Shown one piece after another: positions 4,096-62,622 of a stretch of DNA of 64,000 nucleotides (positions within the stretch are counted from its first letter, which is position 1; the number at the start of each line of letters is the position of its first letter). Source of the stretch: Candidatus Yanofskybacteria bacterium (GTDB taxonomy: Bacteria; Patescibacteriota; Minisyncoccia; 2-02-FULL-40-12; GWA2-44-9); assembly GCA_903830625.1 (NCBI GenBank), contig CAIKUK010000014.1, forward strand, positions 772 to 64,771. The letters run 5' to 3'. The position numbers were made by a program, and so were the translations under genes. The notes below the pieces were generated by a model. The model was not told where the DNA came from. It ran no database searches and saw nothing but the letters and a program-made list of their open reading frames with translations.

Positions 4096-4100
4096 AAATC

Positions 4101-5851: not shown

Positions 5852-5872
5852 TTCAGACCCTCAACCGCCATG

Positions 5873-5915: not shown

Positions 5916-5944
5916 TGACGGGTAGTATATAATTTAAAACCACT

Positions 5945-6346
5945 ATGATTAATCAAAACTCAAAATTTTTAGTTGAGATTTCACCGGCAGAACTTATTGA
6001 TAAAATTTGTATTCTGGAGATTAAGATTGAAAAAATTACTGACCCGGAGAAGAATAGGAATGTAAAACATGAGCTCAAAGTTCTCATGGACGTCTTCAAT
6101 GCCCTCGTTTTTCCTTCTCGGGAACTCAACCAATTGATTAATAGACTGAGAGCTGCTAGCAAGCGCGGATGGGAAATTGAAGATATAAAGAGAGAGTGCG
6201 AACGAGAGAAGGATTTTGGTGATAAATTTATTGAAGCCGCCCGGGGAGCGTTCAAAAATAATGATGAACGAGCAATGATTTGGAAGGAAATCAATATGCT
6301 TTTGAAATCGAATATTGTTCAGGAAAAATCTTATGAAAAATACTAA
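5945..6346 (+). CDS. Hypothetical protein (133 aa, charged, alpha-helical)
   Basis: Intact ORF between the Nudix and gmd genes with a tataat-like box about 15 nt upstream; no family recognised. Confidence 0.45.
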
Positions 6347-11592: not shown

Positions 11593-12585
11593 ATGAGAAT
11601 TAAAGTAAAAACATTACTATATCAATACGCCAGAAACCTTAGATCTGTTGTTCAAAAGCCCCTGCTGAGTATTATTGTCGTATTGATAAAGAAAAGAATT
11701 ATTGATCCCGAAGCAGTATATTCCGTATTTTCCAAATACGGCTTCTATTTTCTTAAAAAGAGCCACTATTTACCTATCCCGGATGAAGGTGACCTCACTT
11801 ATGCCTATAGTAAGCAATCCGAACTGGTTGGTCTAGACATGAATGAGAGTTATGCGCTGGACTTGTTAGATAATGTAATTTTGAAATATAAAAGTGAATT
11901 TAATGCTTTTCCTGTCAATAAAACTGATGACGATTCAGTCTATTATTTATTGAACGGAAATTATATGGCCATTGACGGTAATGTCTACTATTCTCTTATA
12001 AGGCATTTAAAACCAAATAAGATTATTGAAATTGGTTCCGGTTTTTCTACTAGGTTAGCCTGCAACGCCATATCTAAAAATATACAAGAATCAAACAGTA
12101 AAACACAGTTAATATGCATCGAACCTCATCCGCGCGAGATGCTAAAAGATAATTTACCCAAATTCTTAGAATTAAAAGTAAGCAAAGTTCAAGATGTCGG
12201 ACTAGATATGTTTGAGTCTTTAAGGGCGGGGGATATCTTATTTATCGATTCATCGCATGCGCTTCGGACCGGAGGCGATGTCTGGTGGGAATATTGCGAG
12301 ATTTTGCCGCGGCTTGCTTCCGGTGTTTATGTCCATATTCACGATATCCATTTACCAAAGCCATATCCAAGGCACTACTTTAACCAGCATACTTACTGGA
12401 ACGAACAGTATTTATTGCAGGCATTTTTGACCTTTAATCCTAAATTTGAAGTAATTTGGCCCGGCAATTATTTAATGACTAAATATCCCGAGAAGATTCG
12501 CAAGGCATTTCTACCGGAGTATGACCTGATGCTATCAAAGTATTCCTTTGCCGAACCGGCAAGTTTTTGGATGAGGGTGCAGTGA
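11593..12585 (+). CDS. Putative class I SAM-dependent methyltransferase (Methyltransf_24/CmcI-like)
   Basis: IIEIGSGFSTR...LFIDSSHALRTGGDVWWEY pattern; the assignment is tentative. Confidence 0.4.
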   Translation: MRIKVKTLLYQYARNLRSVVQKPLLSIIVVLIKKRIIDPEAVYSVFSKYGFYFLKKSHYLPIPDEGDLTYAYSKQSELVGLDMNESYALDLLDNVILKYKSEFNAFPVNKTDDDSVYYLLNGNYMAIDGNVYYSLIRHLKPNKIIEIGSGFSTRLACNAISKNIQESNSKTQLICIEPHPREMLKDNLPKFLELKVSKVQDVGLDMFESLRAGDILFIDSSHALRTGGDVWWEYCEILPRLASGVYVHIHDIHLPKPYPRHYFNQHTYWNEQYLLQAFLTFNPKFEVIWPGNYLMTKYPEKIRKAFLPEYDLMLSKYSFAEPASFWMRVQ

Positions 12586-15135: not shown

Positions 15136-16173
15136 ATGAAAAATAAAACGGTATTAATTATTGGTGGAGCCGGTTTCATTGGTATCAACAATGCCGATTA
15201 CCTTTTGAGCAGGAAATATAATGTTATCTTGGCCGATAATTTATCTAGAAATGGCTCAGCCCTAAATTTAGAATGGCTTAGAAAAAAATGGGGAGAATCT
15301 TTCGAGTTTATTAAACTGGACATAACAGTTGATAAAGATAAATTAGATGTCCTCGTGGCAAAAGTTGATGCTGTTTATCACTTTGCAAGTCAAATCGCCG
15401 TTACAATTTCAGTTTTAAACCCCATGCACGACTTTATGGTTAATGCCATGGGGACGTTAAATGTTTTAGAATCGATTAGGAATTCGCAGAATAAGCCTAT
15501 GTTGTTATTTTCGTCAACGAACAAAGTTTATGGCAGTATGGAAAATTTAGGCATTAAACCCACAGGAGACGGGTATAGATATGAGTCTTTACAAGGGATA
15601 AATGAAATCCAACTACTCGATTTTCATTCACCTTATGGTTGTAGTAAGGGTGCTGCTGATCAATATGTACGCGACTATGCCAGGGTGTTTGGTCTAAAAA
15701 CCGTAGTTTTTAGACAGTCGTGTATTTACGGGACTCATCAATTTGGAGTTGAGGATCAGGGCTGGGTTGCTTGGTTTGCTATTTCTGCTATTTTGGATAG
15801 GCCGATTACAATTTACGGCGATGGTCATCAGTCGCGAGATGTTCTTTTTGTGGATGACCTGTGCGAACTCTATGAAATGGCGCTAAGAAACATTTCGAAG
15901 CTCAGTGGTAAAACTTATAATATCGGCGGAGGACCAATAAATACTTTGTCGGTTCTAGGAACTATTGGCAGGCTGGAACGAATTTTAGGCAAAAAAATAC
16001 AGGCATCATTCTCTGATTGGCGAGTCGGAGATCAAAAAGTGTTTATCTCGGATGTAGGGCTTATCGCCAAAGACTTAGGCTGGAGACCCACAACAAATAT
16101 TGATGATGGTTTAAAAAAAGTTGTAAACTGGGCGAAGAAAACCAAAGTTATATTTGAAAAACTGCATGGATAG
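15136..16173 (+). CDS. NAD-dependent epimerase/dehydratase (SDR; CDP-paratose 2-epimerase / GDP-4-keto-6-deoxymannose reductase-like)
   Basis: VLIIGGAGFIG Rossmann motif and an YxxxK-type region YGCSKGAADQY. Confidence 0.75.
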   Translation: MKNKTVLIIGGAGFIGINNADYLLSRKYNVILADNLSRNGSALNLEWLRKKWGESFEFIKLDITVDKDKLDVLVAKVDAVYHFASQIAVTISVLNPMHDFMVNAMGTLNVLESIRNSQNKPMLLFSSTNKVYGSMENLGIKPTGDGYRYESLQGINEIQLLDFHSPYGCSKGAADQYVRDYARVFGLKTVVFRQSCIYGTHQFGVEDQGWVAWFAISAILDRPITIYGDGHQSRDVLFVDDLCELYEMALRNISKLSGKTYNIGGGPINTLSVLGTIGRLERILGKKIQASFSDWRVGDQKVFISDVGLIAKDLGWRPTTNIDDGLKKVVNWAKKTKVIFEKLHG

Positions 16174-23735: not shown

Positions 23736-23780
23736 CGAGATAGAAATCCCCGGCTCCAGAGCCGGGGATTTCTATCTCGA
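23736..23780. repeat. Perfect 21-bp inverted repeat hairpin
   Basis: cgagatagaaatccccggctc / gagccggggatttctatctcg; intergenic, downstream of the minus-strand sugar transferase gene. Confidence 0.6.
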
Positions 23781-23863
23781 ACAGGAGAATTATTTTCAAG
23801 AGAGCGAGTGAAGTCAAATTTATTTGTATTTCCGAGCGAGTGCTGAAAATATAAGCAAAGCGA

Positions 23864-27585: not shown

Positions 27586-27776
27586 TTTCACTTTACCTTA
27601 AATCACTCTGAAGTCGGCCCAAGATTAACACAAAGCCGACCGTCGCAGGCGGGTAGCCGAGGGCAGAGCGGAAAATTCAGCAGAATTTTAACGCGGGTCG
27701 GCGTGGGTTAGTCTTGGGTCGACTTACGTTACAAACGCTTTAAATTACTTGAAAATAGTGCTAGAATGCTAAAACT

Positions 27777-38387: not shown

Positions 38388-39689
38388 ATGGATTCTATCC
38401 TAAACACCCTGGGTTCTACTTGGACGGCCTTGGGTTTGGTGTTTTCTTACTGGTGGATTTGGGCGCCGCTTATTCTGGTTTTTGTCTATGTGGAAGCTCT
38501 CAAAGAATATAATCAAAAAGTTTACAAGGCCGGATTGAAATGGATAACCTACGAATTAAAAATACCACTTGATGCCCACAAAAGTCTCAAGGCGATGGAA
38601 CAGATTTTTGCCGGCTTGCACGTGGTTGGACAATCAACGCCGCCTAAAAACCTTTGGGAAAAATACAAAAATTGGCGGGATGCGCTTTTCAAAGGCAAGG
38701 TTAAAGATTGGCTCTCATTGGAGATTGTCGGCACGGGCGGAGAGATTCATTTTTACATCAGAATAATAGAGAAGTATAAAAGTTTGGTTGAGGCCCAAAT
38801 TTATGCCCAATATCCCGAATCCGAATTAACTCCGGTCACGGACTACATGTTGAGTTTTCCCGCTTCTTTGTCTTATAGCGACGTAAACGTAAACGCTCTG
38901 GAGCTGGTATTCATCAAAGAAGATATTTATCCTATCAAAACTTATCCCGAATTTGATGAAGAAGGCGCGGGCAAGGATGACGTCAGGCGCATTGATCCAC
39001 TAGCGCCAGTGGCCGAAACATTGAGTGGCCTGGGACTCTCTGAATTTTTCGGTATTCAGATATTGGCCCGTTCAACAGGGGATGCCTGGGTTAAAAAGGA
39101 CCAAGCGGTCATCGATAAACTAATGGGTCGGGAAGAAAAGAAAGGAAAAACAGCCGCTGATTCTGTCTTTGAAGGTATTGAAAGCGGGGCGCATTCAATT
39201 TCTAGCGCTTTTTTCGGTCCAGGCGAGCCAGCCAAAGAAGAAAAGAAAAAAGAAGACAAACCTTTCAATCAATTGAATCCTGGTATTCAGGAAACCATTA
39301 AGACTATAGAAAAGGGCACAGCCAAATTGGCTTTTGAGTCGGGTATCAGAATGGTTTATATTGCTCCACTAGATAAATATGACGACGGCCGGATGCGCAG
39401 TGTCGCCGGCGCTTTCAAGCAATTTTCCACCCAAGCCCTCAATGGTTTTAAGCCGGGACTTTCGACCGACATTACCAAAGGTTTTAATAAATCTGCCCGC
39501 TCGCTAAAAAACAAGAAAAAAATATATAAAAGCTATCGAGGCCGGGACTTCCCCAAGAAGCCTTTGATTTTGAATACCGAAGAGCTGACGACAATTTTCC
39601 ATGTTCCCGATGTCGGCGTGAAGACACCGGCTTTGCCTCGCATTGAAGCCAAGAAAGGCGAAGCGCCGGCCGGAATTCCTACTGTTTAA
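38388..39689 (+). CDS. Hypothetical membrane-anchored protein (N-terminal TM, large extracytoplasmic/cytoplasmic domain), possibly a partner of the downstream T4CP-like ATPase
   Basis: 433 aa with a TALGLVFSYWWIWAPLILVFVYV TM segment; no family recognised; tightly linked to the downstream ATPase. Confidence 0.5.
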   Translation: MDSILNTLGSTWTALGLVFSYWWIWAPLILVFVYVEALKEYNQKVYKAGLKWITYELKIPLDAHKSLKAMEQIFAGLHVVGQSTPPKNLWEKYKNWRDALFKGKVKDWLSLEIVGTGGEIHFYIRIIEKYKSLVEAQIYAQYPESELTPVTDYMLSFPASLSYSDVNVNALELVFIKEDIYPIKTYPEFDEEGAGKDDVRRIDPLAPVAETLSGLGLSEFFGIQILARSTGDAWVKKDQAVIDKLMGREEKKGKTAADSVFEGIESGAHSISSAFFGPGEPAKEEKKKEDKPFNQLNPGIQETIKTIEKGTAKLAFESGIRMVYIAPLDKYDDGRMRSVAGAFKQFSTQALNGFKPGLSTDITKGFNKSARSLKNKKKIYKSYRGRDFPKKPLILNTEELTTIFHVPDVGVKTPALPRIEAKKGEAPAGIPTV

Positions 39690-39699
39690 AAAATTAAGC

Positions 39700-41280
39700 A
39701 TGGCCTTATCTACAGACAACCAGATTCTTATTCTCGGCGAAACAAACTTCCGAAACGAGAAACAGCATTTTGGAATTAAAGCCGATGACCGCCGCCGTCA
39801 CATGTATGTGGTCGGTTCAACTGGTATGGGCAAGTCCGAGTTTTTAAAAAATATGGCCATCCAGGATATTGAAGAAGGCCGGGGTCTGGCCTTTCTGGAT
39901 CCGCACGGCGACGGGGCCCAAGCTTTAATTAACTTTATTCCCAAACATCGCATTAAAGATGTCATCTATTTTGATCCGGCCGACCTGGCTTACCCGATTG
40001 CCTTCAACGTGCTTGAAAAAGTGGATTACGAATATCGCCACTTAATTGCTTCCGGACTTTTGGGCGTGTTTAAAAAACTTTGGGGCGCCGAAGCCTGGTC
40101 CGGCCGGATGGAATACATTTTAAACAACACCATTTTGGCCCTGCTTGAATATCCGGACTCCACGCTTTTGGGTATTAATCGCTTGATGGCTTCCAAAGAA
40201 TACCGCCGAAAAGTCGTTGATAACTTGAAAGACCCGATTGTGAAAGCCTTCTGGACTGATGAATTCGCCAAATATTCCGATAAATTTGCCAGCGAAGCCA
40301 CGGCGGCCATTCAAAACAAAGTCGGCCAGTTTTCATCCAACAATGTCATCCGCAATATTGTCGGTCAGGTGGGTACCAAGCTTGATATCCGCAAAATCAT
40401 GGACGAAGGCAAGATTCTTATTGTCAACCTGTCTAAAGGCGCTATCGGTGAAGATGCTTCGCGGCTCCTCGGCGCTTTATTGATTACCAAAATTCAACTA
40501 GCGGCCATGTCCCGGGTGGATACTCCCGAAACAGAACGCCGCGATTTTTATCTCTATGTTGATGAATTTCAAGCTTTTGCTACCGAATCTTTCGCTAATA
40601 TTTTATCCGAAGCCCGCAAATATCATTTGAACCTGATTGTGGCTCATCAGTACATCACGCAAATGGAAGAAGAAGTTCGTGATGCGGTCTTCGGCAACGC
40701 CGGCACAATCGTGACCTTCCGGGTGGGCGCGGAAGACGCCGAGTTTTTGGAAAAATGGTATGCCCCTGATTTCATGGCGGCCGATATCGTCAACCTCGGC
40801 AAGCGCGAGATGTATCTTAAATTGATGGTTAACGGCATTACCTCTAAAGGTTTTTCGGCGCGAACAAGCGATTCCTTGGCTTCTATGGAAGAATCCCACC
40901 AAGACGAAGTGATTGCTTTTTCGCGCGCGCATTATTCTTCAAACCGCGATGACGTGGAAAAGTCAGTGGCTGAGTGGGCGACACCGATGGAACCGGCCCC
41001 ATTGCCTCCCCGCGACCGCCGTCCTCAAGACAATTATGGCCAGTCTCGCCAGAGGCCTCGTTCGCAAATGTCCCGTCCGCCTTTGCCACCGAGAGAGGAA
41101 ACAAAACGTGTTGTCTCTTTGGATACTCTCAAAGAGAATGATTCTGATGTAAGAACTGTCGATTTTCGGCGTCAGAGAACCAAAGTCCAGCTGGAGAACT
41201 TAGATGAACCCCGCGAACCTAAGAAAAAGATAGATACCGCTGAGTTGAAGAAAATTCTCGAAGAAGCGCTTAAGAAATAG
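39700..41280 (+). CDS. TrwB/VirD4/TraG-type type IV coupling protein-like ATPase lacking the N-terminal transmembrane domain
   Basis: HMYVVGSTGMGKSEFL...LAFLDPHGDG...DVIYFDP...FNVLE parallels TrwB (HLLVNGATGTGKS...VIVDPNGD...IILNP...FNEI). The Walker B FYLYVDEFQAF and RKYHLNLIVAHQYITQM match LFIDELASL and RKAGLRVVAGLQSTSQL; there is a charged, low-complexity C-terminal tail. Confidence 0.7.
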   Translation: MALSTDNQILILGETNFRNEKQHFGIKADDRRRHMYVVGSTGMGKSEFLKNMAIQDIEEGRGLAFLDPHGDGAQALINFIPKHRIKDVIYFDPADLAYPIAFNVLEKVDYEYRHLIASGLLGVFKKLWGAEAWSGRMEYILNNTILALLEYPDSTLLGINRLMASKEYRRKVVDNLKDPIVKAFWTDEFAKYSDKFASEATAAIQNKVGQFSSNNVIRNIVGQVGTKLDIRKIMDEGKILIVNLSKGAIGEDASRLLGALLITKIQLAAMSRVDTPETERRDFYLYVDEFQAFATESFANILSEARKYHLNLIVAHQYITQMEEEVRDAVFGNAGTIVTFRVGAEDAEFLEKWYAPDFMAADIVNLGKREMYLKLMVNGITSKGFSARTSDSLASMEESHQDEVIAFSRAHYSSNRDDVEKSVAEWATPMEPAPLPPRDRRPQDNYGQSRQRPRSQMSRPPLPPREETKRVVSLDTLKENDSDVRTVDFRRQRTKVQLENLDEPREPKKKIDTAELKKILEEALKK

Positions 41281-41282
41281 TC

Positions 41283-41509
41283 GCTCGGCCCAAGCCATTT
41301 GAAAGACCAGCGTCGAATCTTTCCAGCGAAGATTCGCGCCTCTCCCTCGGCCTTTCACCCAGCACCTATCTATGCCAATACTATTTCGCATCAACCGGTC
41401 GCCTAAGGCGACCGGGATAGCTCAATGGCATCTGGCCGGCTATCGCCTTACTGGAATAGCTGAAAGGCCTGCGGGGAGTCTTTCAGATGGCTTGGGTCTC
41501 GCTGTTTTT
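41283..41509 (+). other. Structured intergenic element closed by a long-range roughly 25-bp stem with a T-run; candidate ncRNA or complex terminator
   Basis: 5' gctcggcccaagccatttgaaagac pairs with 3' gtctttcagatggcttgggtctcgc, including + strand G.U wobbles. Internal hairpins include ccggtcgcc taa ggcgaccgg and gatagc...gctatc. It shares tcggcccaag/cttgggtc with the element at 27611-27725. Confidence 0.4.
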
Positions 41510-41515
41510 GCGTAT

Positions 41516-41545
41516 TTGACATTTAGTTATAAGATATGGTATAAT
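41516..41545 (+). promoter_or_regulatory. Consensus sigma70 promoter TTGACA-N18-TATAAT
   Basis: ttgaca at 41516-41521 and tataat at 41540-41545; aaggagg Shine-Dalgarno at 41558-41564; ATG at 41572. Confidence 0.55.
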
Positions 41546-41571
41546 TAAAGTATTCATTAAGGAGGCAGAAC

Positions 41572-41868
41572 ATGGCATGTCTAGTTTGCGGAAAAGAAGT
41601 TCCTGGAGCTTTGTGCGCAGACTGTGAAGCGTTAGCCGAACAAAAGAAACTGGAAGCATACCCGTTTCCGGTGTTCGGCACGCAAGGTGGCGGGCTCGTC
41701 AGAGAAGTGAGCCAAAACCCGTTCGTGTACGGGTTCGTCGAAGCACCGGAAGGATGTCCCAGCTTGCAAGTTGGGGACACGATGCCCTCAGAGTGGGACA
41801 TTGCTCCCGCGAATCAGGCAGCTCGCGATTTGCTCTACGAAGAGCAGTTCGGGGTCAATGCGAACTGA
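41572..41868 (+). CDS. Small GC-rich zinc-ribbon-like protein (two CxxC pairs), hypothetical
   Basis: 98 aa with CLVCGKEVPGALCADCEAL; perfect promoter and Shine-Dalgarno; its own terminator; GC visibly higher than the flanks. Confidence 0.5.
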   Translation: MACLVCGKEVPGALCADCEALAEQKKLEAYPFPVFGTQGGGLVREVSQNPFVYGFVEAPEGCPSLQVGDTMPSEWDIAPANQAARDLLYEEQFGVNAN

Positions 41869-43257: not shown

Positions 43258-43330
43258 GCGCCCGTAGCTCAATTGGTAGAGCAATTCCCTTTTAAGGAAG
43301 AGGTTCTGCGTTCGAGTCGCAGCGGGCGCA
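43258..43330 (+). tRNA. tRNA-Lys (anticodon UUU)
   Basis: Manual cloverleaf: 7-bp acceptor stem GCGCCCG/CGGGCGC, D arm GCTC-AATTGGTA-GAGC, anticodon loop CTTTTAA (U33, UUU, A37), T arm CTGCG-TTCGAGT-CGCAG, discriminator A. CCA is not encoded, and there is one A.G mismatch at 27-43. Confidence 0.85.
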
Positions 43331-43345
43331 CTTTATTTTATTTTC

Positions 43346-46132: not shown

Positions 46133-47058
46133 TGGACAGAAAGTTTGCCGGACTGACAATTGTCGTCGCGATTTTGGTGTTAGCTAACACCTATTTTTTT
46201 ATTACGATTTATCGAACACCGATTAGTGATCCTGGTCAGATTTTTCACGATAATCAAGCCTTTATTTTCCCGCCTAATCCGATTAGTTATTTGCCTGTTC
46301 TAAATACTTCAATGAATGAAATTACTTTAGACGCGAAGTCGGCAATTCTTTATGATACAAAATCAGACCGCAATCTCTTTGAAAAAAATATCAAAGAAAA
46401 ACTGCCCATCGCTTCGCTGACCAAAGTGATGAATGCGGTGGTGGTTTGGGAAAAATTCAGTCCCAACGACGTTGTCACTATTAAATCTTCAGCGGTCGGA
46501 GTCGACGGTCAGCGGAAAGATCTTTATGTCGACGAAACCCTATCGGTCCATAATTTAATGCAGATGATGTTCATTGAATCATCAAACGACGCCGCTTATG
46601 CTTTGCGTGATTATGCCGCCAGTCACAGTGTTGATTTGGTGGCGGAAATGAATAAGAAAGCATCGGAATTGGGAATGAGTGATACCCATTTCGTTGATCC
46701 GGCGGGGCTGGATGATACCGGCTATTCGACGGCCAGCGACCTGGTGAAAGGCGTGGCTTACGCTTTGCGCTACGATGCCATTTGGAGTCTCTCCCGAAAA
46801 TCAACGGCCACAATCATCTCAACTGATGGCAAGATTACCCATGAAATTAAGAGCACAGACCAGCTTTTGGGCGTTCTATCAGACATTGTTGGTGGAAAAA
46901 CAGGGTATACAGACAGTGCTCTCGGGTGTATGATTCTTATTGTTGATGCGCCTGACCAGGGTGATCGTATTATTGCCATCATTCTTGGTTCCCATGATCG
47001 CTTCGGCGACATGAAGAACTTGATTTCTTGGGCCAGGCGGGCATATAGATGGAATTAA
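46132..47058 (+). CDS. D-alanyl-D-alanine carboxypeptidase (serine-type, peptidase S11, DacA-like)
   Basis: SxxK (ASLTKVM), SxN (ESSNDAA), KTG (GKTGYT); N-terminal TM/signal. Confidence 0.8.
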   Translation: MDRKFAGLTIVVAILVLANTYFFITIYRTPISDPGQIFHDNQAFIFPPNPISYLPVLNTSMNEITLDAKSAILYDTKSDRNLFEKNIKEKLPIASLTKVMNAVVVWEKFSPNDVVTIKSSAVGVDGQRKDLYVDETLSVHNLMQMMFIESSNDAAYALRDYAASHSVDLVAEMNKKASELGMSDTHFVDPAGLDDTGYSTASDLVKGVAYALRYDAIWSLSRKSTATIISTDGKITHEIKSTDQLLGVLSDIVGGKTGYTDSALGCMILIVDAPDQGDRIIAIILGSHDRFGDMKNLISWARRAYRWN

Positions 47059-47197
47059 TCCCGCACATAACGAGCACCGGCAATACTACTGCGATACTAT
47101 GCGTATTTAATAATAATTAATCATACAGCACCGATAAGCTTGGCTAATACGAACAATCGTATCGCTAAAGCAGTTAGTGCTTGTTATGTGCGGGATG
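47058..47197 (+). repeat. 140-nt hairpin-ended intercistronic element, copy 1 (spans from the last A of the dacA TAA to the mraY ATG)
   Basis: About 86% identical by eye to copy 2 at 56759-56898. Terminal 19-21 nt inverted repeats atcccgcacataacgagcac / gtgcttgttatgtgcgggat. Confidence 0.8.
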
Positions 47198-48262
47198 ACA
47201 CCTTCTCCTCTCGAAAGTCTTAATATTTTTAATATCGTCCGGTTATTTGTTGTAACGACGACAGCTTTCTTTTTAAATCTCATTATCACTTATTTTTGGA
47301 CTAAGGTTTTGTTCACCCGCTTTAAGCCAGGCAAAGCCGTTGAGCGCCCGGACACGCCGATATTCAACAGTCTTCATCGGAAAAAAGAAGGTACGCCGAC
47401 TATGGGCGGTTTGCCGATTTGGCTGACTGTTTCGATTATCGCTCTGGGATGTTGGGCCTTAGCGACTTTTTTTGATGGCATTTGGGGGAAAATTAATTTT
47501 ATATCCCGAAGCCAAACGTTGTTGCCGTTAGGTTTCCTGATTCTGGCCGGCCTGGTCGGTATGGCCGATGATATGGTCGGTGTTTTAAAACGTGGCGGTC
47601 TCAAACTCGGCAAAAGGTTGCTGTTTTTTATCGGCGTGGCGGTTATCGGCGCGTGGTGGTTCTATTTTAAACTTGATATCAGAACCATCACCGTGCCCTT
47701 TATGGGCGAATATACCATCGGCTGGCTCTATATTCCGTATTTCATTTTTATCATGGTGGCCACGGCGTTTTCCATGAATGAGACCGACGGTCTCGATGGC
47801 TTGTCAGGGGGCGTATTCTTAACAATTTTCGGCGCGCTGGCCGCCATCGCCTTTGACCAAGGCCGTCTGGATCTTGCCATTTTTATCGGTGCCATTATGG
47901 GCGCGCTCATCGGCTTTTTGTGGTTTAACATCTATCCAGCGAAGTTTTTTATGGGCGACACCGGCGTGATGGCGCTTGGTTTCACGGTCGGCGTAGTAGC
48001 TCTACTGACAAACACGGAACTTCTTTTGCCTATCATCGCCATTATCCCGCTGGTAGAATCCGGTTCGGTCATTCTCCAGACTATTTCCAAAAAAGTCCGC
48101 CAGAAAAAAATATTTCCCTCCACGCCGATTCACCATACTTTTGAAGCTATGGGCTGGCCCGAAACCCAAATTACGATGCGTTTTTGGATGATTAACGCCA
48201 TCGGCGCCATCCTCGGTCTCATCATCTTTTTAGTCGACAGCAAACTGCCTCCATTCAAATAG
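47195..48262 (+). CDS. mraY: Phospho-N-acetylmuramoyl-pentapeptide transferase MraY
   Basis: GTPTMGG, DDxxD-like MADDMVGV and other MraY motifs. The start is taken at ATG 47195, which gives an N-terminal length like E. coli MraY; the ORF-track start at 47177 lies inside the repeat element. Confidence 0.9.
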   Translation: MTPSPLESLNIFNIVRLFVVTTTAFFLNLIITYFWTKVLFTRFKPGKAVERPDTPIFNSLHRKKEGTPTMGGLPIWLTVSIIALGCWALATFFDGIWGKINFISRSQTLLPLGFLILAGLVGMADDMVGVLKRGGLKLGKRLLFFIGVAVIGAWWFYFKLDIRTITVPFMGEYTIGWLYIPYFIFIMVATAFSMNETDGLDGLSGGVFLTIFGALAAIAFDQGRLDLAIFIGAIMGALIGFLWFNIYPAKFFMGDTGVMALGFTVGVVALLTNTELLLPIIAIIPLVESGSVILQTISKKVRQKKIFPSTPIHHTFEAMGWPETQITMRFWMINAIGAILGLIIFLVDSKLPPFK

Positions 48263-48640: not shown

Positions 48641-49714
48641 ATGAGGAAACGGCTTTTTTGGATTCTGGGGATATTGATAATTTTCGGCTTGGCCGTCTTG
48701 TCCTCGGCTGGAATTGTGGATGCTCAAAAGAAATTTGGGTCGGCGTATTATTATTTCTTTCATCAATTATTGTACGGCATTGTCCCGGGGATGCTGTTGG
48801 CCTACATTCTTTCGAAAATTAATTTCAGATTGTGGCGTAAGCTTTCACTGTTAATTCTCCTCGGCGCGCTGGCCTTGATGACGCTTGTTTTCGTATCTCA
48901 TTTCGGTTTTGCCACCAAAGGCGCGACGCGTTGGCTGAATATCAGCGGCATCGTTTTCCAACCCGCAGAAATACTGAAACTCTCGCTTGTAATCTATCTA
49001 GCGGCGTGGTTCGGTGGTCGTCATGAACGAACAAACCATTGGCTCTATGGTGCCGCGCCATTTTTTATTGTTCTAGGATTTGCCGCTTTGCTGTTGGCTC
49101 TTCAGCCTGACATCGGCACGCTTATTGTTATCGGCTTTATTGCTATCGGTATGTATTTTGTAGCGGGCGTAAATCTAAAACATTTAGCGGTTATTTTGGG
49201 GATTGGAATCGTTATTCTTTCGGGTTTAATATATTTTAAATCGTATCGTCTTGATCGCATCCTTTCTTTTATGGATCAAAACGCTGATACTCGGGGAATT
49301 TCATACCAAGTAAATCAAGCCAAAATAGCCATCGGGTCGGGCGGTGTTTTTGGCGTCGGTTTTGGCCACAGCACCCAAAAGCTGGGGTTTTTACCGGAAC
49401 CGGTCGGGGATTCAATCTTCGCCATTATTGCTGAAGAACTTGGATTGATTGGCGCTTTAGTTACTGTCGGCTTGTTTGTGGCACTCTGCCTGACCCTTAC
49501 TCAAATTGCTGTCGCGACACTGGATCCATTCGGCCGATTATTTGTTAGTGGTATCAATATTTGGATTATGGCCCAGGCTTTTATTAATATTGCCGCTATT
49601 TCCGGCCTGGCTCCGCTCACTGGTATCCCATTGCCTTTTATCAGTTACGGCGGTACGGCCATGATTGCTCTACTGGCAGGATTGGGGATTGTATTTAATG
49701 TAGCCAAGGATTAA
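48641..49714 (+). CDS. ftsW: SEDS family peptidoglycan glycosyltransferase FtsW/RodA
   Basis: 357 aa with 10 TM helices and SEDS conserved segments (RWLNISGIVFQPAEILKLSLVIYLA...). Confidence 0.8.
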   Translation: MRKRLFWILGILIIFGLAVLSSAGIVDAQKKFGSAYYYFFHQLLYGIVPGMLLAYILSKINFRLWRKLSLLILLGALALMTLVFVSHFGFATKGATRWLNISGIVFQPAEILKLSLVIYLAAWFGGRHERTNHWLYGAAPFFIVLGFAALLLALQPDIGTLIVIGFIAIGMYFVAGVNLKHLAVILGIGIVILSGLIYFKSYRLDRILSFMDQNADTRGISYQVNQAKIAIGSGGVFGVGFGHSTQKLGFLPEPVGDSIFAIIAEELGLIGALVTVGLFVALCLTLTQIAVATLDPFGRLFVSGINIWIMAQAFINIAAISGLAPLTGIPLPFISYGGTAMIALLAGLGIVFNVAKD

Positions 49715-49733: not shown

Positions 49734-49799
49734 GTTGAATTAACTAACTGCTTTAAAATCTAACATATGTTAGATTTTAAAGCAGTTAGTTAATTCAAC
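49734..49799. repeat. Perfect 66-bp palindrome (33-nt arms, no spacer)
   Basis: gttgaattaactaactgctttaaaatctaacat | atgttagattttaaagcagttagttaattcaac, verified base by base; located between convergent ftsW and rpsT. Confidence 0.9.
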
Positions 49800-50150: not shown

Positions 50151-52151
50151 CTAAGAATCTAAGCCCTTAAGTTTACGGATTTGTTCTTTGATGCCGATAG
50201 CTTGTTCATAGTTGAATTTGCGGATGGCGGTTTCAAGCATGCGCTGGAGTTGTTTGAGGGCTTTTTGTTTGGTGCCGCCGCCGTAAAAGATGACCTCGTT
50301 TTCACCTTCGCCGTAATGCTGTTCTGATTTGCGGCCTGTAGCCATTTCAAATCCGCCGGTTGAACGGGCGATACTAGTCGGAGTGATACCGTGTTTTTTA
50401 TTGTGCTCGATTTGTTTGGCGCGCCGGCGCTGAGTTTCGCCAATAGAGGCTTCCATCGATTTCGTGATTTTGTCGGCATACATGATGACGTGGCCGTCTT
50501 TATGGCGGGCCGCTCGGCCCATGGTTTGAATCAGAGTGGTGGCATTGCGAAGAAAACCTTCTTTGTCGGCATCAAGAATGGCGATGAGCGACACTTCGGG
50601 CAAATCTAAACCTTCCCGCAAAAGATTTACACCGACGATGACGTTATACAGACCCGAACGCAAGTCTTTGATGATCTTAACTCGGTCGAGAGTTTTAATT
50701 TCGGAATGGAGGTAATTGACTTTAATATCGTTTCGGGCGAGGTGTTCGGATAAATCTTCGGCCATACGTTTGGTCAGGGTGGTCACAATGACTCGCTCAT
50801 TCTTGGTGACGCGTTCTTTGATTCGGCCGATAAGATGTTCCACTTGATTAGTGGTGGGCACGATTTCCACGGTCGGGTCTAGCAAACCTGTCGGCCGGAT
50901 AAGCTGTTCAGCGATATTGTCCGGACCGGCCTCGTCCAACTCAAACTTAGCCGGCGTGGCCGAAACATAAACTACTTTCTGAATGCGTTCTTTGAATTCC
51001 ATAAACTTTAAAGGCCGGTTATCAATCGCCGAGGGCAAGCGAAAACCGTATTCTATCAGGGTTGATTTACGGGAGTGGTCGCCTTTATACATGCTGCGCA
51101 GTTGGGGGATGGTAACATGGGATTCGTCAATGATAGTCAGGAATTCGCCTTTGGATTTAAAGAAGTCCAACAGTGAGAAAGCCGGCTCGCCGGCTTTGCG
51201 GAAATCCAAATGTCGGGAATAGTTTTCAATGCCATGGCAATAGCCAGTCTGGCGCATCATTTCCAAGTCGCGCGTGGTTTTTTCCTGCAAACGCGAAGCT
51301 TCCTGATTCTTGCCGATTTTTTTCAAATGTTTGACGTGCTGTTGCAATTCGCTTTTGATGTTTTCAATTGCCAGCTCGATTTTATGGTCGGTAGTAATCC
51401 AGTATTTGGCAGGAAAGATGACTGTGTGAACTATTTTTTCATAGTTCAAATCCTTTGTTTCTAAATCTTCAGGGTCGTTAAGCAAGGCTCGGTACATTCG
51501 GATAATAGTATCGTTTTTGAAAGTGACTTTAGTCACTTCCTGGCCTGTTGGCGAAATGATTTCAATTTCGGTTTGCGTCTTGCGGAAGGCGCCACGCTTT
51601 AATTCTATGTCTTGGACGTATTGCAACCTTAAAAGACTGCGGATAAAATCTGAGGGCTTGATTTGTTTACCTTCAAATAATTCCAGGCCTAAATTTTTGT
51701 ATTCTTCCGGGTTACCAAGGTTGTAGATACACGAGACCGAAGCCACCACAATAACATCATCATGATTCATCATGGCTTGGGTGGTGGCGTGGCGCAACCG
51801 GTCCAGTTCTTCGTTGATCTTGGAGTCCTTTTCAATATAGGTATCAGTGTGGGGAATGTACGCTTCCGGCTGATAATAATCGTAATAGCTAACAAAGTAG
51901 TGGACGGCATTATTTGGAAAAAATTCTTTCATTTCCTTGTAGAGCTGGGCGGCCAGGGTTTTATTATGAGAAATGATGAGCGTCGGCTTTTGATATTGCT
52001 CAATAACTTTGGCCATGGTGAAGGTCTTACCCGAACCGGTCACACCCAAAAGCACCTGACGCTTTTTGCATTGTCCTAAACCTTTGACCAATTTCTTGAT
52101 GGCCTCTGGTTGGTCACCGGTCGGCTGGAATCTTGAAGTTAGTTTGAACAT
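50151..52151 (-). CDS. uvrB: Excinuclease ABC subunit B (UvrB)
   Basis: FKLTSRFQPTGDQPEAIKKLVKGL N-terminus, GVTGSGKTFTMA Walker A, helicase motifs, and a C-terminal UvrB/UvrC interaction segment. The true start is probably ATG 52151 (MFKL...); the track ORF extends 34 codons upstream. Confidence 0.95.
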   Translation of the reverse strand: MFKLTSRFQPTGDQPEAIKKLVKGLGQCKKRQVLLGVTGSGKTFTMAKVIEQYQKPTLIISHNKTLAAQLYKEMKEFFPNNAVHYFVSYYDYYQPEAYIPHTDTYIEKDSKINEELDRLRHATTQAMMNHDDVIVVASVSCIYNLGNPEEYKNLGLELFEGKQIKPSDFIRSLLRLQYVQDIELKRGAFRKTQTEIEIISPTGQEVTKVTFKNDTIIRMYRALLNDPEDLETKDLNYEKIVHTVIFPAKYWITTDHKIELAIENIKSELQQHVKHLKKIGKNQEASRLQEKTTRDLEMMRQTGYCHGIENYSRHLDFRKAGEPAFSLLDFFKSKGEFLTIIDESHVTIPQLRSMYKGDHSRKSTLIEYGFRLPSAIDNRPLKFMEFKERIQKVVYVSATPAKFELDEAGPDNIAEQLIRPTGLLDPTVEIVPTTNQVEHLIGRIKERVTKNERVIVTTLTKRMAEDLSEHLARNDIKVNYLHSEIKTLDRVKIIKDLRSGLYNVIVGVNLLREGLDLPEVSLIAILDADKEGFLRNATTLIQTMGRAARHKDGHVIMYADKITKSMEASIGETQRRRAKQIEHNKKHGITPTSIARSTGGFEMATGRKSEQHYGEGENEVIFYGGGTKQKALKQLQRMLETAIRKFNYEQAIGIKEQIRKLKGLDS

Positions 52152-52179
52152 TTGATACTTTTGCTCAAAGGAGTTCTTA

Positions 52180-52376
52180 TGAAATTTGCCAACACTGTTT
52201 CGTTTGTTCTTTCGATTTTCTTCATCGGCGTCTACTCTTGGGGCAGTGGCCAACTACTTCTCGTCCCGTTCGTGTATTTTTCGGGGTTTTTGGTGGGAAT
52301 GATTTATGGTATGAAAGTCGAGGGGTGGATACCCAAGATCAGCCGACCTCACTTCAAGGACTGCCAACAGGTGTAA
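52180..52376 (+). CDS. Hypothetical small membrane protein (65 aa), divergent from uvrB
   Basis: aaaggag Shine-Dalgarno 6 nt before ATG 52180; two TM helices; a hairpin terminator follows at 52401-52432. Confidence 0.35.
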
Positions 52377-56477: not shown

Positions 56478-56759
56478 ATGACCAATCCGCTTACGATGCA
56501 AGTTGAGTCCCGAATGGGGGCTGTATTCATTTCTTTATTGGCGATATTTTTTACGGGTGTTCTTTTCGTGGCTATCAAAAACTACGAGTCTGATCAAATT
56601 GTGCTGGATGCGTCCGTTACTCAAGTTAAATCAATGTCTTCAACTGAGCGTCAGATTATTGCTCAATGGATTAAAGATAATAATATTCCGGTACCCGACG
56701 GCCAAGGTTATCGTTACTTGATTCAGGAATATCCGAATCGGCCGTGGCTTAGTTATTAA
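56478..56759 (+). CDS. Hypothetical small membrane-anchored protein (93 aa)
   Basis: ATG 56478 in the same frame as the longer track ORF 56178 (whose 5' part overlaps the previous gene); one TM helix. Confidence 0.35.
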   Translation: MTNPLTMQVESRMGAVFISLLAIFFTGVLFVAIKNYESDQIVLDASVTQVKSMSSTERQIIAQWIKDNNIPVPDGQGYRYLIQEYPNRPWLSY

Positions 56760-56898
56760 TCCCGCACATAACAAGCACTGGCAATACTACTGCGTCACTA
56801 TGCGGATATAAATAATATTAATCATACAGCACTGATAAGCTTGGATAATACATAAAATCGTATTGCTCAAGCAGTTGGTGCTTGTTATGTGCGGGATG
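56759..56898 (+). repeat. 140-nt hairpin-ended intercistronic element, copy 2 (spans TAA of the upstream ORF to the ATG of the presenilin-like protease gene)
   Basis: Same length and termini as copy 1 at 47058-47197, with about 20 substitutions. Confidence 0.8.
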
Positions 56899-57729
56899 AA
56901 AATTCAGCCCAATCTTTTTCTGAAAGAAGCGTTAATGTTCGGCGGGACTTTCGCTCTGGGTTTGTTTGTGGCTTATCAATATGTGATTCAGCTCCCAAAC
57001 GTAGAAATTATCCAACCCTCGAACATCACTACTGGAGATATAGTTGGTTTTATTCTAATATTCGTGGCAGTTTGGTTGGTTAGTCGTATTCGGCAGTTAT
57101 CAAGTTGGGTGTTCTGGATATTCATTTCTATTTTAATTCTTGCCGGTTCCCAAATTGTGATTGCTTCCGTGGCGCCGTTCCCACTAGATATTATCGGAAG
57201 CCTGCTGATTTTGGCCACTTTTCTTGTTGCCCATACTGTTATTACGCACGATATCGCCATTGCTTTGGGTATCGCCGGTCTTGGCGCTGCTGTCGGCATT
57301 ATTATTACACCTACAGTCGGCGTCGTGGTTCTGGTCCTGATGTCCTTCTATGATATTATTGCCGTATATAAGACCCGGCATATGGTCCGGATTGCTGAAA
57401 GTATGATTCGTTCTGGCGCCGTATTCGGTTTTATTATTCCGCCCAGTACTGAACTTTTTATGGCTTCGCGGCATGAGGCCAAATCTCGAATCGGAACTGA
57501 TTTTATGATTTTGGGTTCGGGTGATATTGGTTTGCCTTTAATTTTTATCAGTTCTTTGGTCCGCCAATCTTTGCCTGAAGCGATTATCGTCGCTTGTTTC
57601 GCCATGCTCGGACTGCTTTTAACTCATATATTGTTTGTCAGCCAGACTAAACGTCAACCGATGGCCGCGTTGCCGCCGATTGCGACGATGACCCTAATCG
57701 GGTATGCCGTGGCATTGGTGATTATATAA
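56896..57729 (+). CDS. Presenilin/signal-peptide-peptidase-like GxGD intramembrane aspartyl protease (A22-like)
   Basis: YD (LMSFYDIIAVY), GxGD (LGSGDIGLP) and PAL (MAALPP) motifs in the canonical order within a roughly 9-TM protein; an alternative start is ATG 56935. Confidence 0.6.
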   Translation: MKIQPNLFLKEALMFGGTFALGLFVAYQYVIQLPNVEIIQPSNITTGDIVGFILIFVAVWLVSRIRQLSSWVFWIFISILILAGSQIVIASVAPFPLDIIGSLLILATFLVAHTVITHDIAIALGIAGLGAAVGIIITPTVGVVVLVLMSFYDIIAVYKTRHMVRIAESMIRSGAVFGFIIPPSTELFMASRHEAKSRIGTDFMILGSGDIGLPLIFISSLVRQSLPEAIIVACFAMLGLLLTHILFVSQTKRQPMAALPPIATMTLIGYAVALVII

Positions 57730-59985: not shown

Positions 59986-62316
59986 ATGAGCGAATTCAAA
60001 ATAAACAATATTATTATCCCCGAGGAATTACCGGTTATTGCTCTCAAAAATACGGTTCTATTTCCGAAACTGGTCATTCCCATTATTATCCAGCGCCCTA
60101 AATCAATCAGTGCGTTGGAGTTTGCGCAGACCCACAATCGGCTCGTTCTCTTTATGACCCAAAAAAACAGCGAAGATGACATCTCCGCGAACGATTTATA
60201 TAAAGTGGGCACTATCGGCCGGATTGTTTCCATTTTCAAACTTCCGGACGGCTCATCGAAAATTGACGTTGAAGGTCTCATCCGAGCTCGGATTACCGAC
60301 TTTGTTACTGAAGAGCCATTCATTCGCGTCAATGCCGAGCCGATGGCGCTGATTATCCGCGATAATCTGGACGAAAAAGCTATTCTTAGGCGAGCCATCG
60401 AACAATTTCGGGTTATCTCCGAGGCCCGTTCTTTCCCGACCATCCTGCCCGAAATTATTTACATGATGTCCCAACTCAAAGACACCGAACACATTGCCAG
60501 CTTGATGACAGTGAATTTAAACTTGGAAGTGGAGAACCAACAACGTATTCTGGAACTGGAAAGCCTGCTTGATATCTTGCGTCAGCTCAATATGTACCTC
60601 TCACGTGAAGTTCAAATTCTTGAAACCGAAAAAGATGTCGTCAAAGAAACCAAAAAGCAAATCGGCAAAATGCAGAAAGAGCTTTTCCTGAGAGAGCAAT
60701 TAAAGAGTATTGAAAAAGAACTGGGCGTGGATGATGAAAAAGACGAACTGGTTTCCGTTCGCGCCAAAATAATGTCCGCCGGTATGCCCAAAGATATCCA
60801 AGAAAAAGCCCTCAAAGAATTAAGCCGTTTGGGCAAGATGCCGGCCTTCAATCCCGAAGGTTCATATATCCGCAGTTACCTCGATCTTTTAAGCGAGTTG
60901 CCGTGGTCTAAAAAAACAAAGGAGAAAATTGATCTGAAAGAAGCCGAAAAGATATTAAATGAAGACCACTACGGCTTGCCTAAAGTTAAGGAACGTATTT
61001 TGGAATATCTGGCGGTTCAAAAACAAGTTGGTAAATTAAAAGGTCCGATTCTATGTTTAGTCGGTCCGCCGGGTACCGGTAAAACTTCAGTCGGCCAGTC
61101 CATTGCTCGGGCGCTGGGCCGTAAATTTGCTCGCATGTCGCTTGGCGGTTTGCGCGACGAAGCGGAAATCAGGGGTCATCGCCGAACCTATGTCGGAGCC
61201 ATGCCGGGCCGCCTGATTCAAGGCATTCAAAACGTCAAAGTTAAAAATCCGGTCTTTATGCTGGACGAGATTGATAAAGTCGGTTCGGATTTTCGCGGCG
61301 ACCCATCTTCTGCTTTATTGGAAGCTTTGGACCCCCAACAGAACCATGCTTTCTCGGACCATTATCTAGAGGTGCCATTTGATTTGTCCGACGTGTTATT
61401 TATTGTCACGGCCAATCGCTTGGATACGATTCCGCCAGCCTTGCGCGACCGCTTGGAAATTATTGAATTTCCGGGCTATACCGAATTGGAAAAATTCCAT
61501 ATCGCCAAAAATTTTCTTCTGCCCAGACTTTTTAAAGATCATGGCTTAAAAAAGCGAAGCTTAGTATTCCAGGATTCGGCCGTGATGGATATTATTCGCA
61601 ATCATACCCGCGAAGCCGGGGTCCGCGAATTGGAACGCCAACTGGCTAATGTTATCCGAAAAGTAACTCGTAAAATCGTCGAATCGTCTTCGACTAAAAC
61701 TATCAGCATTAATCCCAAAGCCGTCGATACTTATCTTGGTCCGATTAAGTATACCTATGATGTGGCTGAGCGGAAGGATGAAATCGGCCGAGCCACTGGT
61801 TTGGCCTGGACGCCGGTTGGCGGAGACTTGATGATGATTGAAGCTATCCGCATGCCTGGGACAGGTAAACTAATCCTGACGGGTCAGTTAGGCATTGTGA
61901 TGAAAGAATCCGCCCAGGCAGCTTTGTCGTGGGCTCGGGCTTATGCTGCCCGCAGTGGCGTCAAAGAAGATTTGCGCAAAGAAGATATTCATTTGCATGC
62001 GCCGTCCGGCGGCGTTAAAAAAGAAGGTCCATCGGCCGGTATTGCCATTACCACCACTTTAGTTTCACTGTTTCTTAAAAAACCTGTCCGGAAAGAAGTG
62101 GCCATGACGGGTGAAATAACACTCCGGGGCAAAGTGCTCGGCATCGGCGGTCTCAAAGAAAAAGTGCTGGCCGCTCATCGGGCGGGTATCAAAATCGTCG
62201 TCGCGCCGTTTGAAAATAAAAAAGACATGATTGATATTCCCAAAGAAATTCAACGTGACATCAAATTTATTTTCGTGAAAACAATGGAGGAAGTACTCAA
62301 GGTGGCGCTCAAATAA
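59986..62316 (+). CDS. lon: ATP-dependent protease Lon
   Basis: N-terminal LON domain, GPPGTGKTS Walker A, and a C-terminal protease domain with PKEGPSAGIAI (catalytic Ser) and K. Confidence 0.95.
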   Translation: MSEFKINNIIIPEELPVIALKNTVLFPKLVIPIIIQRPKSISALEFAQTHNRLVLFMTQKNSEDDISANDLYKVGTIGRIVSIFKLPDGSSKIDVEGLIRARITDFVTEEPFIRVNAEPMALIIRDNLDEKAILRRAIEQFRVISEARSFPTILPEIIYMMSQLKDTEHIASLMTVNLNLEVENQQRILELESLLDILRQLNMYLSREVQILETEKDVVKETKKQIGKMQKELFLREQLKSIEKELGVDDEKDELVSVRAKIMSAGMPKDIQEKALKELSRLGKMPAFNPEGSYIRSYLDLLSELPWSKKTKEKIDLKEAEKILNEDHYGLPKVKERILEYLAVQKQVGKLKGPILCLVGPPGTGKTSVGQSIARALGRKFARMSLGGLRDEAEIRGHRRTYVGAMPGRLIQGIQNVKVKNPVFMLDEIDKVGSDFRGDPSSALLEALDPQQNHAFSDHYLEVPFDLSDVLFIVTANRLDTIPPALRDRLEIIEFPGYTELEKFHIAKNFLLPRLFKDHGLKKRSLVFQDSAVMDIIRNHTREAGVRELERQLANVIRKVTRKIVESSSTKTISINPKAVDTYLGPIKYTYDVAERKDEIGRATGLAWTPVGGDLMMIEAIRMPGTGKLILTGQLGIVMKESAQAALSWARAYAARSGVKEDLRKEDIHLHAPSGGVKKEGPSAGIAITTTLVSLFLKKPVRKEVAMTGEITLRGKVLGIGGLKEKVLAAHRAGIKIVVAPFENKKDMIDIPKEIQRDIKFIFVKTMEEVLKVALK

Positions 62317-62324
62317 TCGCTCGA

Positions 62325-62520
62325 TCTTTCTCATTTTCTTCCGGCTTCCTCTCGGGCTGGCTCTAGAAATAATCTCTCATTTCTCTGACCGTCCGAAGCC
62401 ACTTCTGTCAGGCCATGCGGACTTAGGCCGTTCCTGACATCTTCGGACCGGTACCCAGAGAAATCTCTAGATTATTTCTGATCCAGCTTCCAATCGTGCA
62501 GATGGAAGAAAATGAGAAAG
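62325..62520. repeat. Roughly 196-nt imperfect palindrome (long nested hairpin) immediately downstream of lon
   Basis: Outer arms ctttctcattttcttcc / ggaagaaaatgagaaag; nested pairs tctagaaataatctct~agagaaatctctagattattt and gaccgtccgaag~cttcggaccggt; centre near atgcggacttagg. Confidence 0.6.
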
Positions 62521-62622
62521 ACCTCGCTATCTCAACAAGTTTTTAGGTTTGCTAAAAAACAAGAAGTGTTGTATTGTATTGGCGTCTTGCTTAACAGTGC
62601 TACTTAACAAAGGAGTTCTTTG

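Follow-up and report, generated by a model that had tools for sequence, protein, structure and literature searches.

The structured element studied here, el1, lies in a stretch of 64,000 nt (the window, meaning the whole of the DNA that was analysed), between a gene for a T4CP-like ATPase and a small zinc-ribbon gene. The ATPase, a DUF87/TrwB/TraG-like protein of 545 aa, places the window in Candidatus Yanofskybacteria (Patescibacteria), its best relatives being 81-84% identical, and el1 begins 1 nt past the TAG of its gene (stop codon 41278-41280). Together with a DUF8128 gene it forms a pair (38388-41280) whose conservation beside an HD-domain gene extends to hundreds of Patescibacteria, with 583 matches confirmed, and suggests a core chromosomal function rather than a conjugative element. 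On the other side of el1 are a run of five T residues on the + strand (T5, 41505-41509) and, outside the element, a sigma-70 consensus promoter (41516-41545, + strand; TTGACA-18-TATAAT, 12/12, with a TG extension) upstream of the 98-aa zinc-ribbon ORF (41572-41868). Both the T-run and the perfect promoter had been pointed out in an earlier sequence-only reading of this DNA, and both stand. The zinc-ribbon protein is rare (a search of 5.8 billion database proteins gave only 17 homologues with E ≤ 0.001) and occurs in unrelated contexts, such as beside CysRS/CorA or in an ArdC-containing region; its gene looks like a small gene moving between genomes. When these homologues were used as a route to orthologous loci, most again proved to be in unrelated contexts and only one, on the short contig L166, was informative.

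The stretch 3' of the T4CP-like gene is hypervariable among relatives. In L003, the closest syntenic relative (T4CP 84% identical), the order is T4CP, a simple terminator and the HD gene, and L003, L007, L009, L013 and L018 all have either a short terminator or almost nothing between the T4CP and HD-domain genes; el1 is missing at the syntenic site in the first four of these. L005 and L011 have other long hairpins of about 210 nt with the same start, TAG|TCGCTCGG, while L008 and L020 have several nested palindromes at this position. L004 possesses the orthologous zinc-ribbon gene and promoter without el1, the spacer being a different structured one of about 330 nt; with the right flank of el1 the L004 locus has only TCTCGCTGTT in common, and no clean pair of filled and empty sites was found among the loci compared. 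Because the downstream region differs in this way among relatives, el1 is not a conserved feature of the T4CP-like locus. Nor is it an assembly artefact, since an independent ENA assembly has exactly the same element, and its 3' part, from 41456, is found on a Logan contig that begins inside el1.

Predicted structure of el1

Measured from tag to tag, el1 occupies 223 nt (41281-41503, core on the - strand), and the multi-hairpin element of roughly 225 nt that the sequence-only reading had placed after the T4CP-like gene is real, with a fold z-score of about -8. On the + strand, 41281-41512 has a minimum free energy of -110.6 kcal/mol against a dinucleotide-shuffle mean of -72.3 ± 4.7 (z = -8.07), and 0 of 200 shuffles fold as well; the - strand is about equal (-112.8, z = -7.15). 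The closing stem consists of 21 contiguous pairs (G41287-C41307 with G41478-C41498) and, beyond a 2x2 loop, two more G-C pairs (41283-84 with 41501-02), giving a total of 23 where about 25 bp had been proposed. The + strand wobbles noted in it do exist, as G41288.U41497 and U41299.G41486, and at two in number they are statistically not informative. Enclosed by this stem are ~190 nt that form a hairpin at 41310-41339 and a second long stem bearing three hairpins. The interior thus has four terminal hairpins, in place of the five or more first counted, with seven helices in total.

At 41413-41429 (+) is the string GGGATAGCTCAATGG, which resembles the 5' acceptor and D-arm of a tRNA, probably by chance. 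It has in common with the tRNA-Lys at 43258-43331 only TAGCTCAAT, a 9-mer of the D-arm, and ARAGORN calls no tRNA at this string.

A search of the window against Rfam (release 15) returned a tRNA only, and 41100-41700 gave zero matches at E ≤ 10. BLAST of el1 against all loci likewise returned no homologues beyond identical assemblies. Homology emerged only by way of a second element in the window and the junction motifs described below.

A dispersed repeat family with a conserved three-way junction

The second element, el2, lies between HPF and SecA (27607-27723, + strand, 117 nt, fold z = -7.05). Its termini, TCGGCCCAAG...CTTGGGTC, are the same as those of el1, which bears out the claim that el1 has terminal motifs in common with a secA-upstream element. 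A BLAST search seeded with el2 matched parts of it in L007, L008 and L056; these matches are at other loci and occur in either orientation. Four el2 homologues were aligned (alignment A2) and used to build a covariance model, R1. The aligned homologues have a common core of about 60 nt, set within closing stems of unrelated sequence: GAACGU-cCGNAG-GC[GGGUA]GCC-GAG-nnAGAGC-AAAAnnC-AGCA-GnnUUUU-AUGCGG. A metagenome pattern scan combined with R1 then yielded 27 further family matches, 21 of them distinct; among the source metagenomes are Hainich groundwater data sets, from which L128, L131 and L153 come. El2 itself scores 85.8 bits (E = 8e-23) with the family model, as a member with a short P2.

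The family unit is a conserved three-way junction, 5'-CCGNAGGC-[P2]-GCCGAG(R)GAGA-[P3 hairpin with conserved loop]-3', enclosed by a closing stem, P1, of 15-30 bp. P1 is different in sequence in every copy, and four Watson-Crick pair types are seen among the copies at nearly every position; within the main P1 helix, each of the 13 pairs has double changes. Over the whole family alignment 95.2% of pair cells are paired, double changes occur in 30 of 34 pairs, and the covariation score is 0.694 as opposed to 0.169 in shuffles and about 0.1 in slid controls, figures that are somewhat inflated by the alignment having been fitted to the model. On the core-bearing strand there are 24 G.U pairs to 4 A.C, an excess that holds for sense and antisense copies alike.

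Abutting P1 in many copies are short tags, which on the core strand read AGCGA(G) 5' of P1 and (C)GAGCGA 3' of it and amount to direct repeats. Such CGAG/AGCGA direct repeats flank about half of the copies and are constant in sequence and orientation. Constant tags of this kind may be structural, as tandem G.A pairs extending P1, rather than target-site duplications: they could stack on P1 as C-G / G.A / A.G / G-C, and the same CG(N)AG...CGAG arrangement closes P2.

Rfam returned chance matches only for el2 (for instance, a miRNA hairpin scoring 21 bits where the threshold is 75). The phage and plasmid collections contained no match to the family, pattern scans of IMG/VR gave only chance matches, and a literature search found no description of such elements in Patescibacteria. 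The family is therefore treated here as previously undescribed, its nearest described kinds being tagged REPs, MITEs and the Rickettsia palindromic elements. Its occurrence is patchy; the short-P2 model, applied to 80 genomes that were sampled around the T4CP gene, detected copies only in L007, L008 and L056.

Probable assignment of el1 to the long-P2 subfamily

Sequence models detect el1 poorly. With filters off, R1 makes a local match to the 3' half of its minus strand (E = 0.0019 over 401 nt). A further model, R2, reaches 10.7 bits, which is not significant (E = 2.2 over the window), and an nhmmer search with the family profile misses el1; short-P2 copies were the basis of the models, and the P2 of el1 is ~120 nt long. 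A hand-built subfamily model was dropped, as MAFFT/RNAalifold could not reliably align the variable lengths of P1, P2 and P3. The comparison that proved decisive was with a long-P2 subfamily consisting of L008b (11877-12016), L008c, L008d, two L013 copies and L059.

Read on its minus strand, the first half of el1 is ACAGCGAG-[P1 ACCCAAGCCAUCUGAAAGAC]-UCCCCGCAGGCC-[P2, about 120 nt], and the second half, after P2, is GGCCGAGGGAGAG-GCGCGAAUCUU-CGCUGGA-AAGAUUCGACGC-UG-[P1']-CGAGCGA. The 5' tag AGCGAG of the core strand is at 41498-41503 and its 3' partner, CGAGCGA, corresponds to 41281-41287 on the +; the termini of el1 read TCGCTCGG...CTCGCT. These tags flank at least 12 further copies, in core orientation every time. 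The P1 arms are GGCCCAAGCCATTTGAAAGAC (41287-41307) and GTCTTTCAGATGGCTTGGGTC (41478-41498) as written on the +; the two G.U pairs of the + strand are A.C mismatches on the core strand. Next to the 5' arm of the core strand is the junction motif UCCCCGCAGGCC (41466-41477, -), which by direct sequence reading comprises J1/2, P2a and a GNA internal loop. The expanded P2 interior (41353-41465, -) was delimited by fold and motif comparison; its P2b stem pairs 41349-41362 with about 41456-41469 and encloses hairpins at 41372-41391, 41395-41415 and 41416-41444, the middle one of which, GGUCGCC-NNN-GGCGACC, is found again in L013 and L059. There follow the second junction motif, GGCCGAGGGAGAG (41340-41352, -; the 3' side of P2 and J2/3), which lies in the R1 local match and recurs in L008b, L059 and L166, and the P3 hairpin (41310-41339, -; GCGCGAAUCUU-CGCUGGA-AAGAUUCGACGC).

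This order, UCCCCGCAGGCC...GGCCGAGGGAGAG, P3, P1', is the P1-P2-P3 junction order of the family. El1 also carries the P3 loop CGCUGGR, which is diagnostic for the long-P2 subfamily, together with the AGCGA(G)/(C)GAGCGA tags in core orientation. The loop and tags, along with CCGCAGGC and GCCGAGGGAGA, are common to el1, L008b, L008d, the two L013 copies and L059; GCCGAG(R)GAGA is likewise common to el1 and the long-P2 subfamily, and some long-P2 relatives have the same P2 sub-hairpin, GUCGCC-NNN-GGCGAC. An ordered regular expression of three motifs, run over 1.9 Mb, gave 11 matches as compared with 1-7 in shuffles. They were el1 (in the window and in its duplicate, L001), five clear relatives (two in L008, two in L013 and one in L059), one doubtful (L033) and three probable chance matches at viral or metagenome loci. 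The closest relative of el1 is in L166, where an element in the same position and orientation lies upstream of a 72%-identical zinc-ribbon homologue; its P1 is related to that of el1, P2b shows a compensatory C-G to A-U change, and the P2 interior is different.

Taken together, about 30 nt of motif matches and the shared architecture, which extend to L008b, L059, L013 and L166, make it most likely that el1 is a member of the long-P2 subfamily with its core on the minus strand. It is accordingly antisense to both neighbouring genes. The sequence-only reading had inferred a + strand RNA from the wobble pairs; this finds no support, and the conserved core motifs and flanking tags that el1 has in common with its relatives read on the - strand.

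Distribution, nesting and other repeats in the window

Family copies are found between unrelated housekeeping genes, including RecR/DnaB, RNase III/S16, formyltransferase, HPF/SecA and Lon, and often abut a stop codon. Between co-directional genes about seven are sense and eight antisense. Around the family copies, neither a promoter nor a terminator keeps a consistent distance from the core strand, and most antisense copies have no adjacent T-run. A bias towards A-rich upstream and T-rich downstream sequence is weak and confounded by coding sequence. One copy, in L129 (4136-4253, -), is located inside an ORF (3627-4826) for a GT4 glycosyltransferase and is read through in frame, so that the linker joining the Glyco_transf_4 domain to the Glycos_transf_1 domain is about 39 residues longer. 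In the recR-dnaB interval of L145, two copies of different subfamilies stand head to head 1 nt apart (5724-5840, -; 5842-5961, +). Neither a transposase nor any other protein that would mobilise the units was identified among the ORFs scanned, those of the 64-kb window and of loci of 21 kb or less.

One genome carries two nearly identical paralogues, L008b and L008c, separated by 7.8 kb. What distinguishes their P1 stems is one compensatory change, G-C to A-U, and two single changes, both of which create U.G on the core strand. L008c additionally has a 53-nt palindromic insertion exactly in its P3 loop (TCCCGATT...AATCGGGA, L008 4128-4180), which is direct evidence of nesting. A shell palindrome (TCYATGCATGCGGAGGGAGACRCC...GGYGTCTCCCTCCGCCGGTTG; …ATGCATGCGGAGGGAGACRCC…) is present three times in the same 21-kb locus, at 7664-7752, 11715-11855 and 15868-15972, once around a three-way-junction unit, once around a short AT-rich loop and once as a diverged form of the shell itself, with a different interior each time. 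Because this shell occurs both with and without a core, the units sit within palindromes that are independent of them.

Nesting of this sort explains the termini common to el1 and el2. The outer part of el1 (41282-41294, CGGCCCAAG and neighbours) is common to the secA-upstream element, and the shell GGCCCAAG/CTTGGGTC is identical in the two on the + strand, including the G.U position, with the cores pointing in opposite directions; the shared termini are best explained as a common outer shell palindrome. On this reading, el1 is made up of a shell palindrome, an inner closing stem (P1), a minus-strand three-way-junction core and an expanded P2. The comparative search for a bracketed family that the sequence-only reading had proposed was successful only by another route: among 80 related loci the bracket GGCCCAAG/CTTGGGYC was found only in the window, and homologues came instead from the el2 core and the junction motifs. 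The bracket is neither widespread nor an uptake-sequence-like word, and is marginally enriched in the window.

A third tag-bearing element, of ~215 nt (62316-62530, -; z = -8.6), follows the stop codon of Lon. It is rod-like, AGCGAG[GTCTTTCTC...GAGAAAGAT]CGAGCGA, with no recognisable three-way-junction core. AGCGAG shows no enrichment over the whole window and is therefore not a genome-wide word.

The window also harbours a separate MITE-like family of ~145 nt (47054-47198 and 56755-56899), with 20-24 bp terminal inverted repeats (ATCCCGCACATAACRAGCAC) and small hairpins inside. Identity is 88-89% between the two copies in the window and 92% for a copy in L003 (15649-15791); this family is of the classical type and unrelated to el1. 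Two further palindromes were observed. One, at 49734-49799, is a perfect AT-rich palindrome of 33+33 nt with no spacer, between convergent ORFs (48641-49714, +; 50151-52253, -), and may be a bidirectional terminator or another type of repeat. The other, at 23736-23779 and 23803-23840, has perfect 21-nt arms (CGAGATAGAAATCCCCGGCTC), is followed by two + strand AGCGAG tags within 100 nt, and may be another member of a tagged-palindrome superfamily.

Interpretation of el1 and alternative explanations

A covarying family, dispersed in many copies at sites that are polymorphic between relatives, with nesting and with near-identical paralogues inside one genome, is the setting in which el1 has to be explained. 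In our reading, to which we assign a probability of roughly 0.6, el1 is a composite, nested copy of this family of scattered, structured palindromes. It would be mobile DNA of the REP/MITE kind, non-autonomous, and would provide a 3' hairpin in a passive way. The units would spread through a folded single-stranded intermediate. Stems that are unconserved and yet paired, a conserved junction and oriented direct tags point to recognition of the folded strand, so that an enzyme acting in trans might identify the intermediate by junction and tags and not by the sequence of terminal inverted repeats. Fresh insertions would favour hairpins or palindromes already present near gene ends. At the present locus, such a unit would have come to lie within the outer shell GGCCCAAG/CTTGGGTC, its P2 would have been expanded to ~120 nt by three further hairpin modules, and the whole would have taken the place of the plain terminator seen in relatives. 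Among the observations that pull the other way, P1 is unconserved between copies, unlike the terminal inverted repeats of classical MITEs, which counts against a MITE-type reading, and the strong conservation of the core across metagenomes would fit a host function too.

Such a function is the basis of the alternative that survives best, namely that the family is a host-functional structured RNA and el1 one of its gene copies. Here the RNA would be protein-binding or catalytic, junction and tandem G.A pairs would be the functional parts, and the long P1 would serve processing or stability. The very strong covariation, the conservation of junction and loops, the preference for G.U on one strand (also between recent paralogues) and the coexistence of two or three subfamilies in single genomes are all in its favour. 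CGNAG...CGAG tandem G.A motifs are, moreover, akin to known protein-recognition motifs. Against this, presence of copies varies between close relatives, copies run both ways relative to flanking transcription with one inside a coding region, and nested insertions break P2 and P3 loops without loss of the copy. The core strand has no consistent promoter or terminator and promoter prediction finds none on the - strand next to el1, for which reason we do not take el1 to be an independent sRNA gene. We consider a host RNA unlikely on balance. The suggestion of an sRNA gene or riboregulator in the sequence-only reading fares no better, given the lack of an Rfam match, the random orientation of copies and the absence of el1 from L003, an absence from close syntenic relatives being part of what that reading had itself looked to for a decision.

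A more radical proposal can be made. The family might represent a new class of structured single-stranded replicator or functional RNA in the ultra-small Patescibacteria, in which junction and tandem G.A tags would form a recognition or catalytic module for an enzyme acting in trans, or would act as a self-processing ribozyme, and in which units homing into the apices of existing hairpins would generate Russian-doll palindromes such as el1. This we put forward tentatively, as an improbable reading.

Alternatively, el1 could be a cis element specific to this locus, acting on the T4CP-like or zinc-ribbon genes as an oversized terminator, a 3'-UTR stabiliser or a + strand riboregulator. It starts 1 nt past a stop codon, its P1 has G.U pairs on the + strand and is followed by UGUUUUUG, relatives have a simple terminator at the same position, and related elements are 3' of the T4CP gene in L008 and L059. 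Four of the elements from the T4CP-centred data sit just 3' of the T4CP-like gene and might point to a role tied to this locus. The conserved motifs are, however, on the - strand in el1 and on the + strand in L008b and L059, so that no consistent sense-strand RNA results; the same family occurs at many unrelated loci and is missing here in the closest syntenic relatives, and two wobble pairs carry no statistical information. A dedicated cis element thus appears quite doubtful. Under the mobile-element reading, a passive role as terminator, 3' stabiliser or insulator is nevertheless plausible from the sequence. With the T-run, P1 forms a possible intrinsic terminator for the T4CP-like gene; together they would probably end or stabilise the transcript of that gene and shield it from the strong promoter of the zinc-ribbon gene. 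This predicted role would be a by-product and not that of a dedicated regulator, nor is it a general property of the family. A terminator scanner did not call el1 on the + strand, its stem and loop exceeding the limits of the scanner.

Finally, el1 might derive from a larger mobile element associated with the T4CP-like ATPase, as its remnant end, its attachment site or an oriT- or ssi-like origin, but this is highly improbable: el1 does adjoin a TrwB/TraG-like ATPase, the neighbouring zinc-ribbon gene is rare and of varied context, and hairpins with conserved loops are akin to HUH nick sites, but the T4CP-like gene and its DUF8128 neighbour are chromosomal, among housekeeping genes, in hundreds of Patescibacteria, the family is multi-copy and mostly far from T4CP-like genes, no integrase, relaxase or second end is nearby, and plasmids and phages are without a match. 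Of the suggestion that el1 is the remnant end of a mobile element, it is the mobile direction that we retain; in place of a remnant we propose a complete small non-autonomous element with nested palindromic modules.

Significance and comparison with known systems

With genomes of about 1 Mb, Patescibacteria are considered streamlined organisms with little mobile DNA, so that one would not expect in them a dispersed, multi-layered repeat family that fills intergenic spaces, occasionally enters genes and shows textbook covariation. In practical terms, the family could be used as a marker for strain-level variation, and it probably causes assemblies of such genomes to break and structured ncRNAs to be called falsely in them. 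With stems free to vary and a conserved junction, it also makes selection on a folded single strand tractable to study. Should a dedicated enzyme or an RNA function be involved, a major lineage without cultivated members would have a mobility system, or an RNA-protein system, of a new kind.

Several known structured elements were compared with el1 and set aside. A retron msr-msd ncRNA does not agree with the neighbours (a T4CP-like ATPase, a zinc-ribbon protein and an HD protein, with no RT) or with the multi-copy nature of el1. Integron attC sites (57-141 nt, RYYYAAC...GTTRRRY) differ from el1 in their termini, and neither a cassette array nor an integrase is present. For the hammerhead, twister, pistol, retron, attC, 6S, SRP and Y-RNA classes, defining motifs or partner genes are missing.

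Like a Rho-independent terminator, el1 has a G+C-rich stem directly past a stop codon, and then a T-run. By definition, though, an intrinsic terminator has a loop of 3-8 nt and then a U-run, whereas el1 has a stem of 21+2 bp that encloses ~190 nt and seven helices before UGUUUUUG; what is conserved has no connection with termination, and half the copies run antisense. The PATEs derived from IS200/IS605 (HUH/Y1) resemble the family in having a strand-asymmetric structure tolerant of G.T, a recognition based on structure, as is proposed here for the family, and a constant short sequence abutting the ends. They have separate left-end and right-end hairpins, unlike the end-to-end stem of the present family, for which no TnpA was found among the ORFs scanned, and copies of the latter point both ways within one locus, unlike replication-strand-biased elements. 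The Rickettsia palindromic elements are likewise palindromic repeats able to sit in frame within protein-coding genes, but the two are unrelated in sequence, and in the present family a single intragenic copy was seen, most copies being intergenic.

REPs are short, non-coding, multi-copy palindromes with a short unpaired tag by the stem, mostly located just 3' of genes, and they occur as several families per genome, in larger folded structures and, for some copies, within genes (PMC3733652). The REP, BIME and REPIN elements of Proteobacteria, with their RAYT transposases, have these traits in common with the family. REPs, however, are 20-40 nt long with GTAG or CGTC tags, whereas the present units are 100-225 nt with AGCGA tags that are direct and not inverted; the REP/REPIN-RAYT definition (20-40 nt, GTAG/CGTC head, inverted doublets) was rejected for this reason. 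The present family also differs in that its stem sequence is unconserved and its internal three-way junction conserved, and no RAYT was identified among the ORFs scanned.

Bacterial MITEs, such as the Neisseria Correia elements, ERIC/IRU and RUP, are similar to the family in their size of 100-250 bp, long inverted repeats, intergenic location and occurrence in both orientations; they, too, are insertion-polymorphic between relatives and can act as terminators or RNA hairpins (PMC10969869). The terminal inverted repeats of MITEs are conserved because a transposase binds them; the classical MITE-like family in the window also has conserved terminal repeats and behaves differently from the el1 family. 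In the el1 family, by contrast, P1 differs from copy to copy and covaries, which does not fit a classical DDE-type MITE, and the direct repeat that flanks it is constant in sequence, with an orientation fixed to the core.
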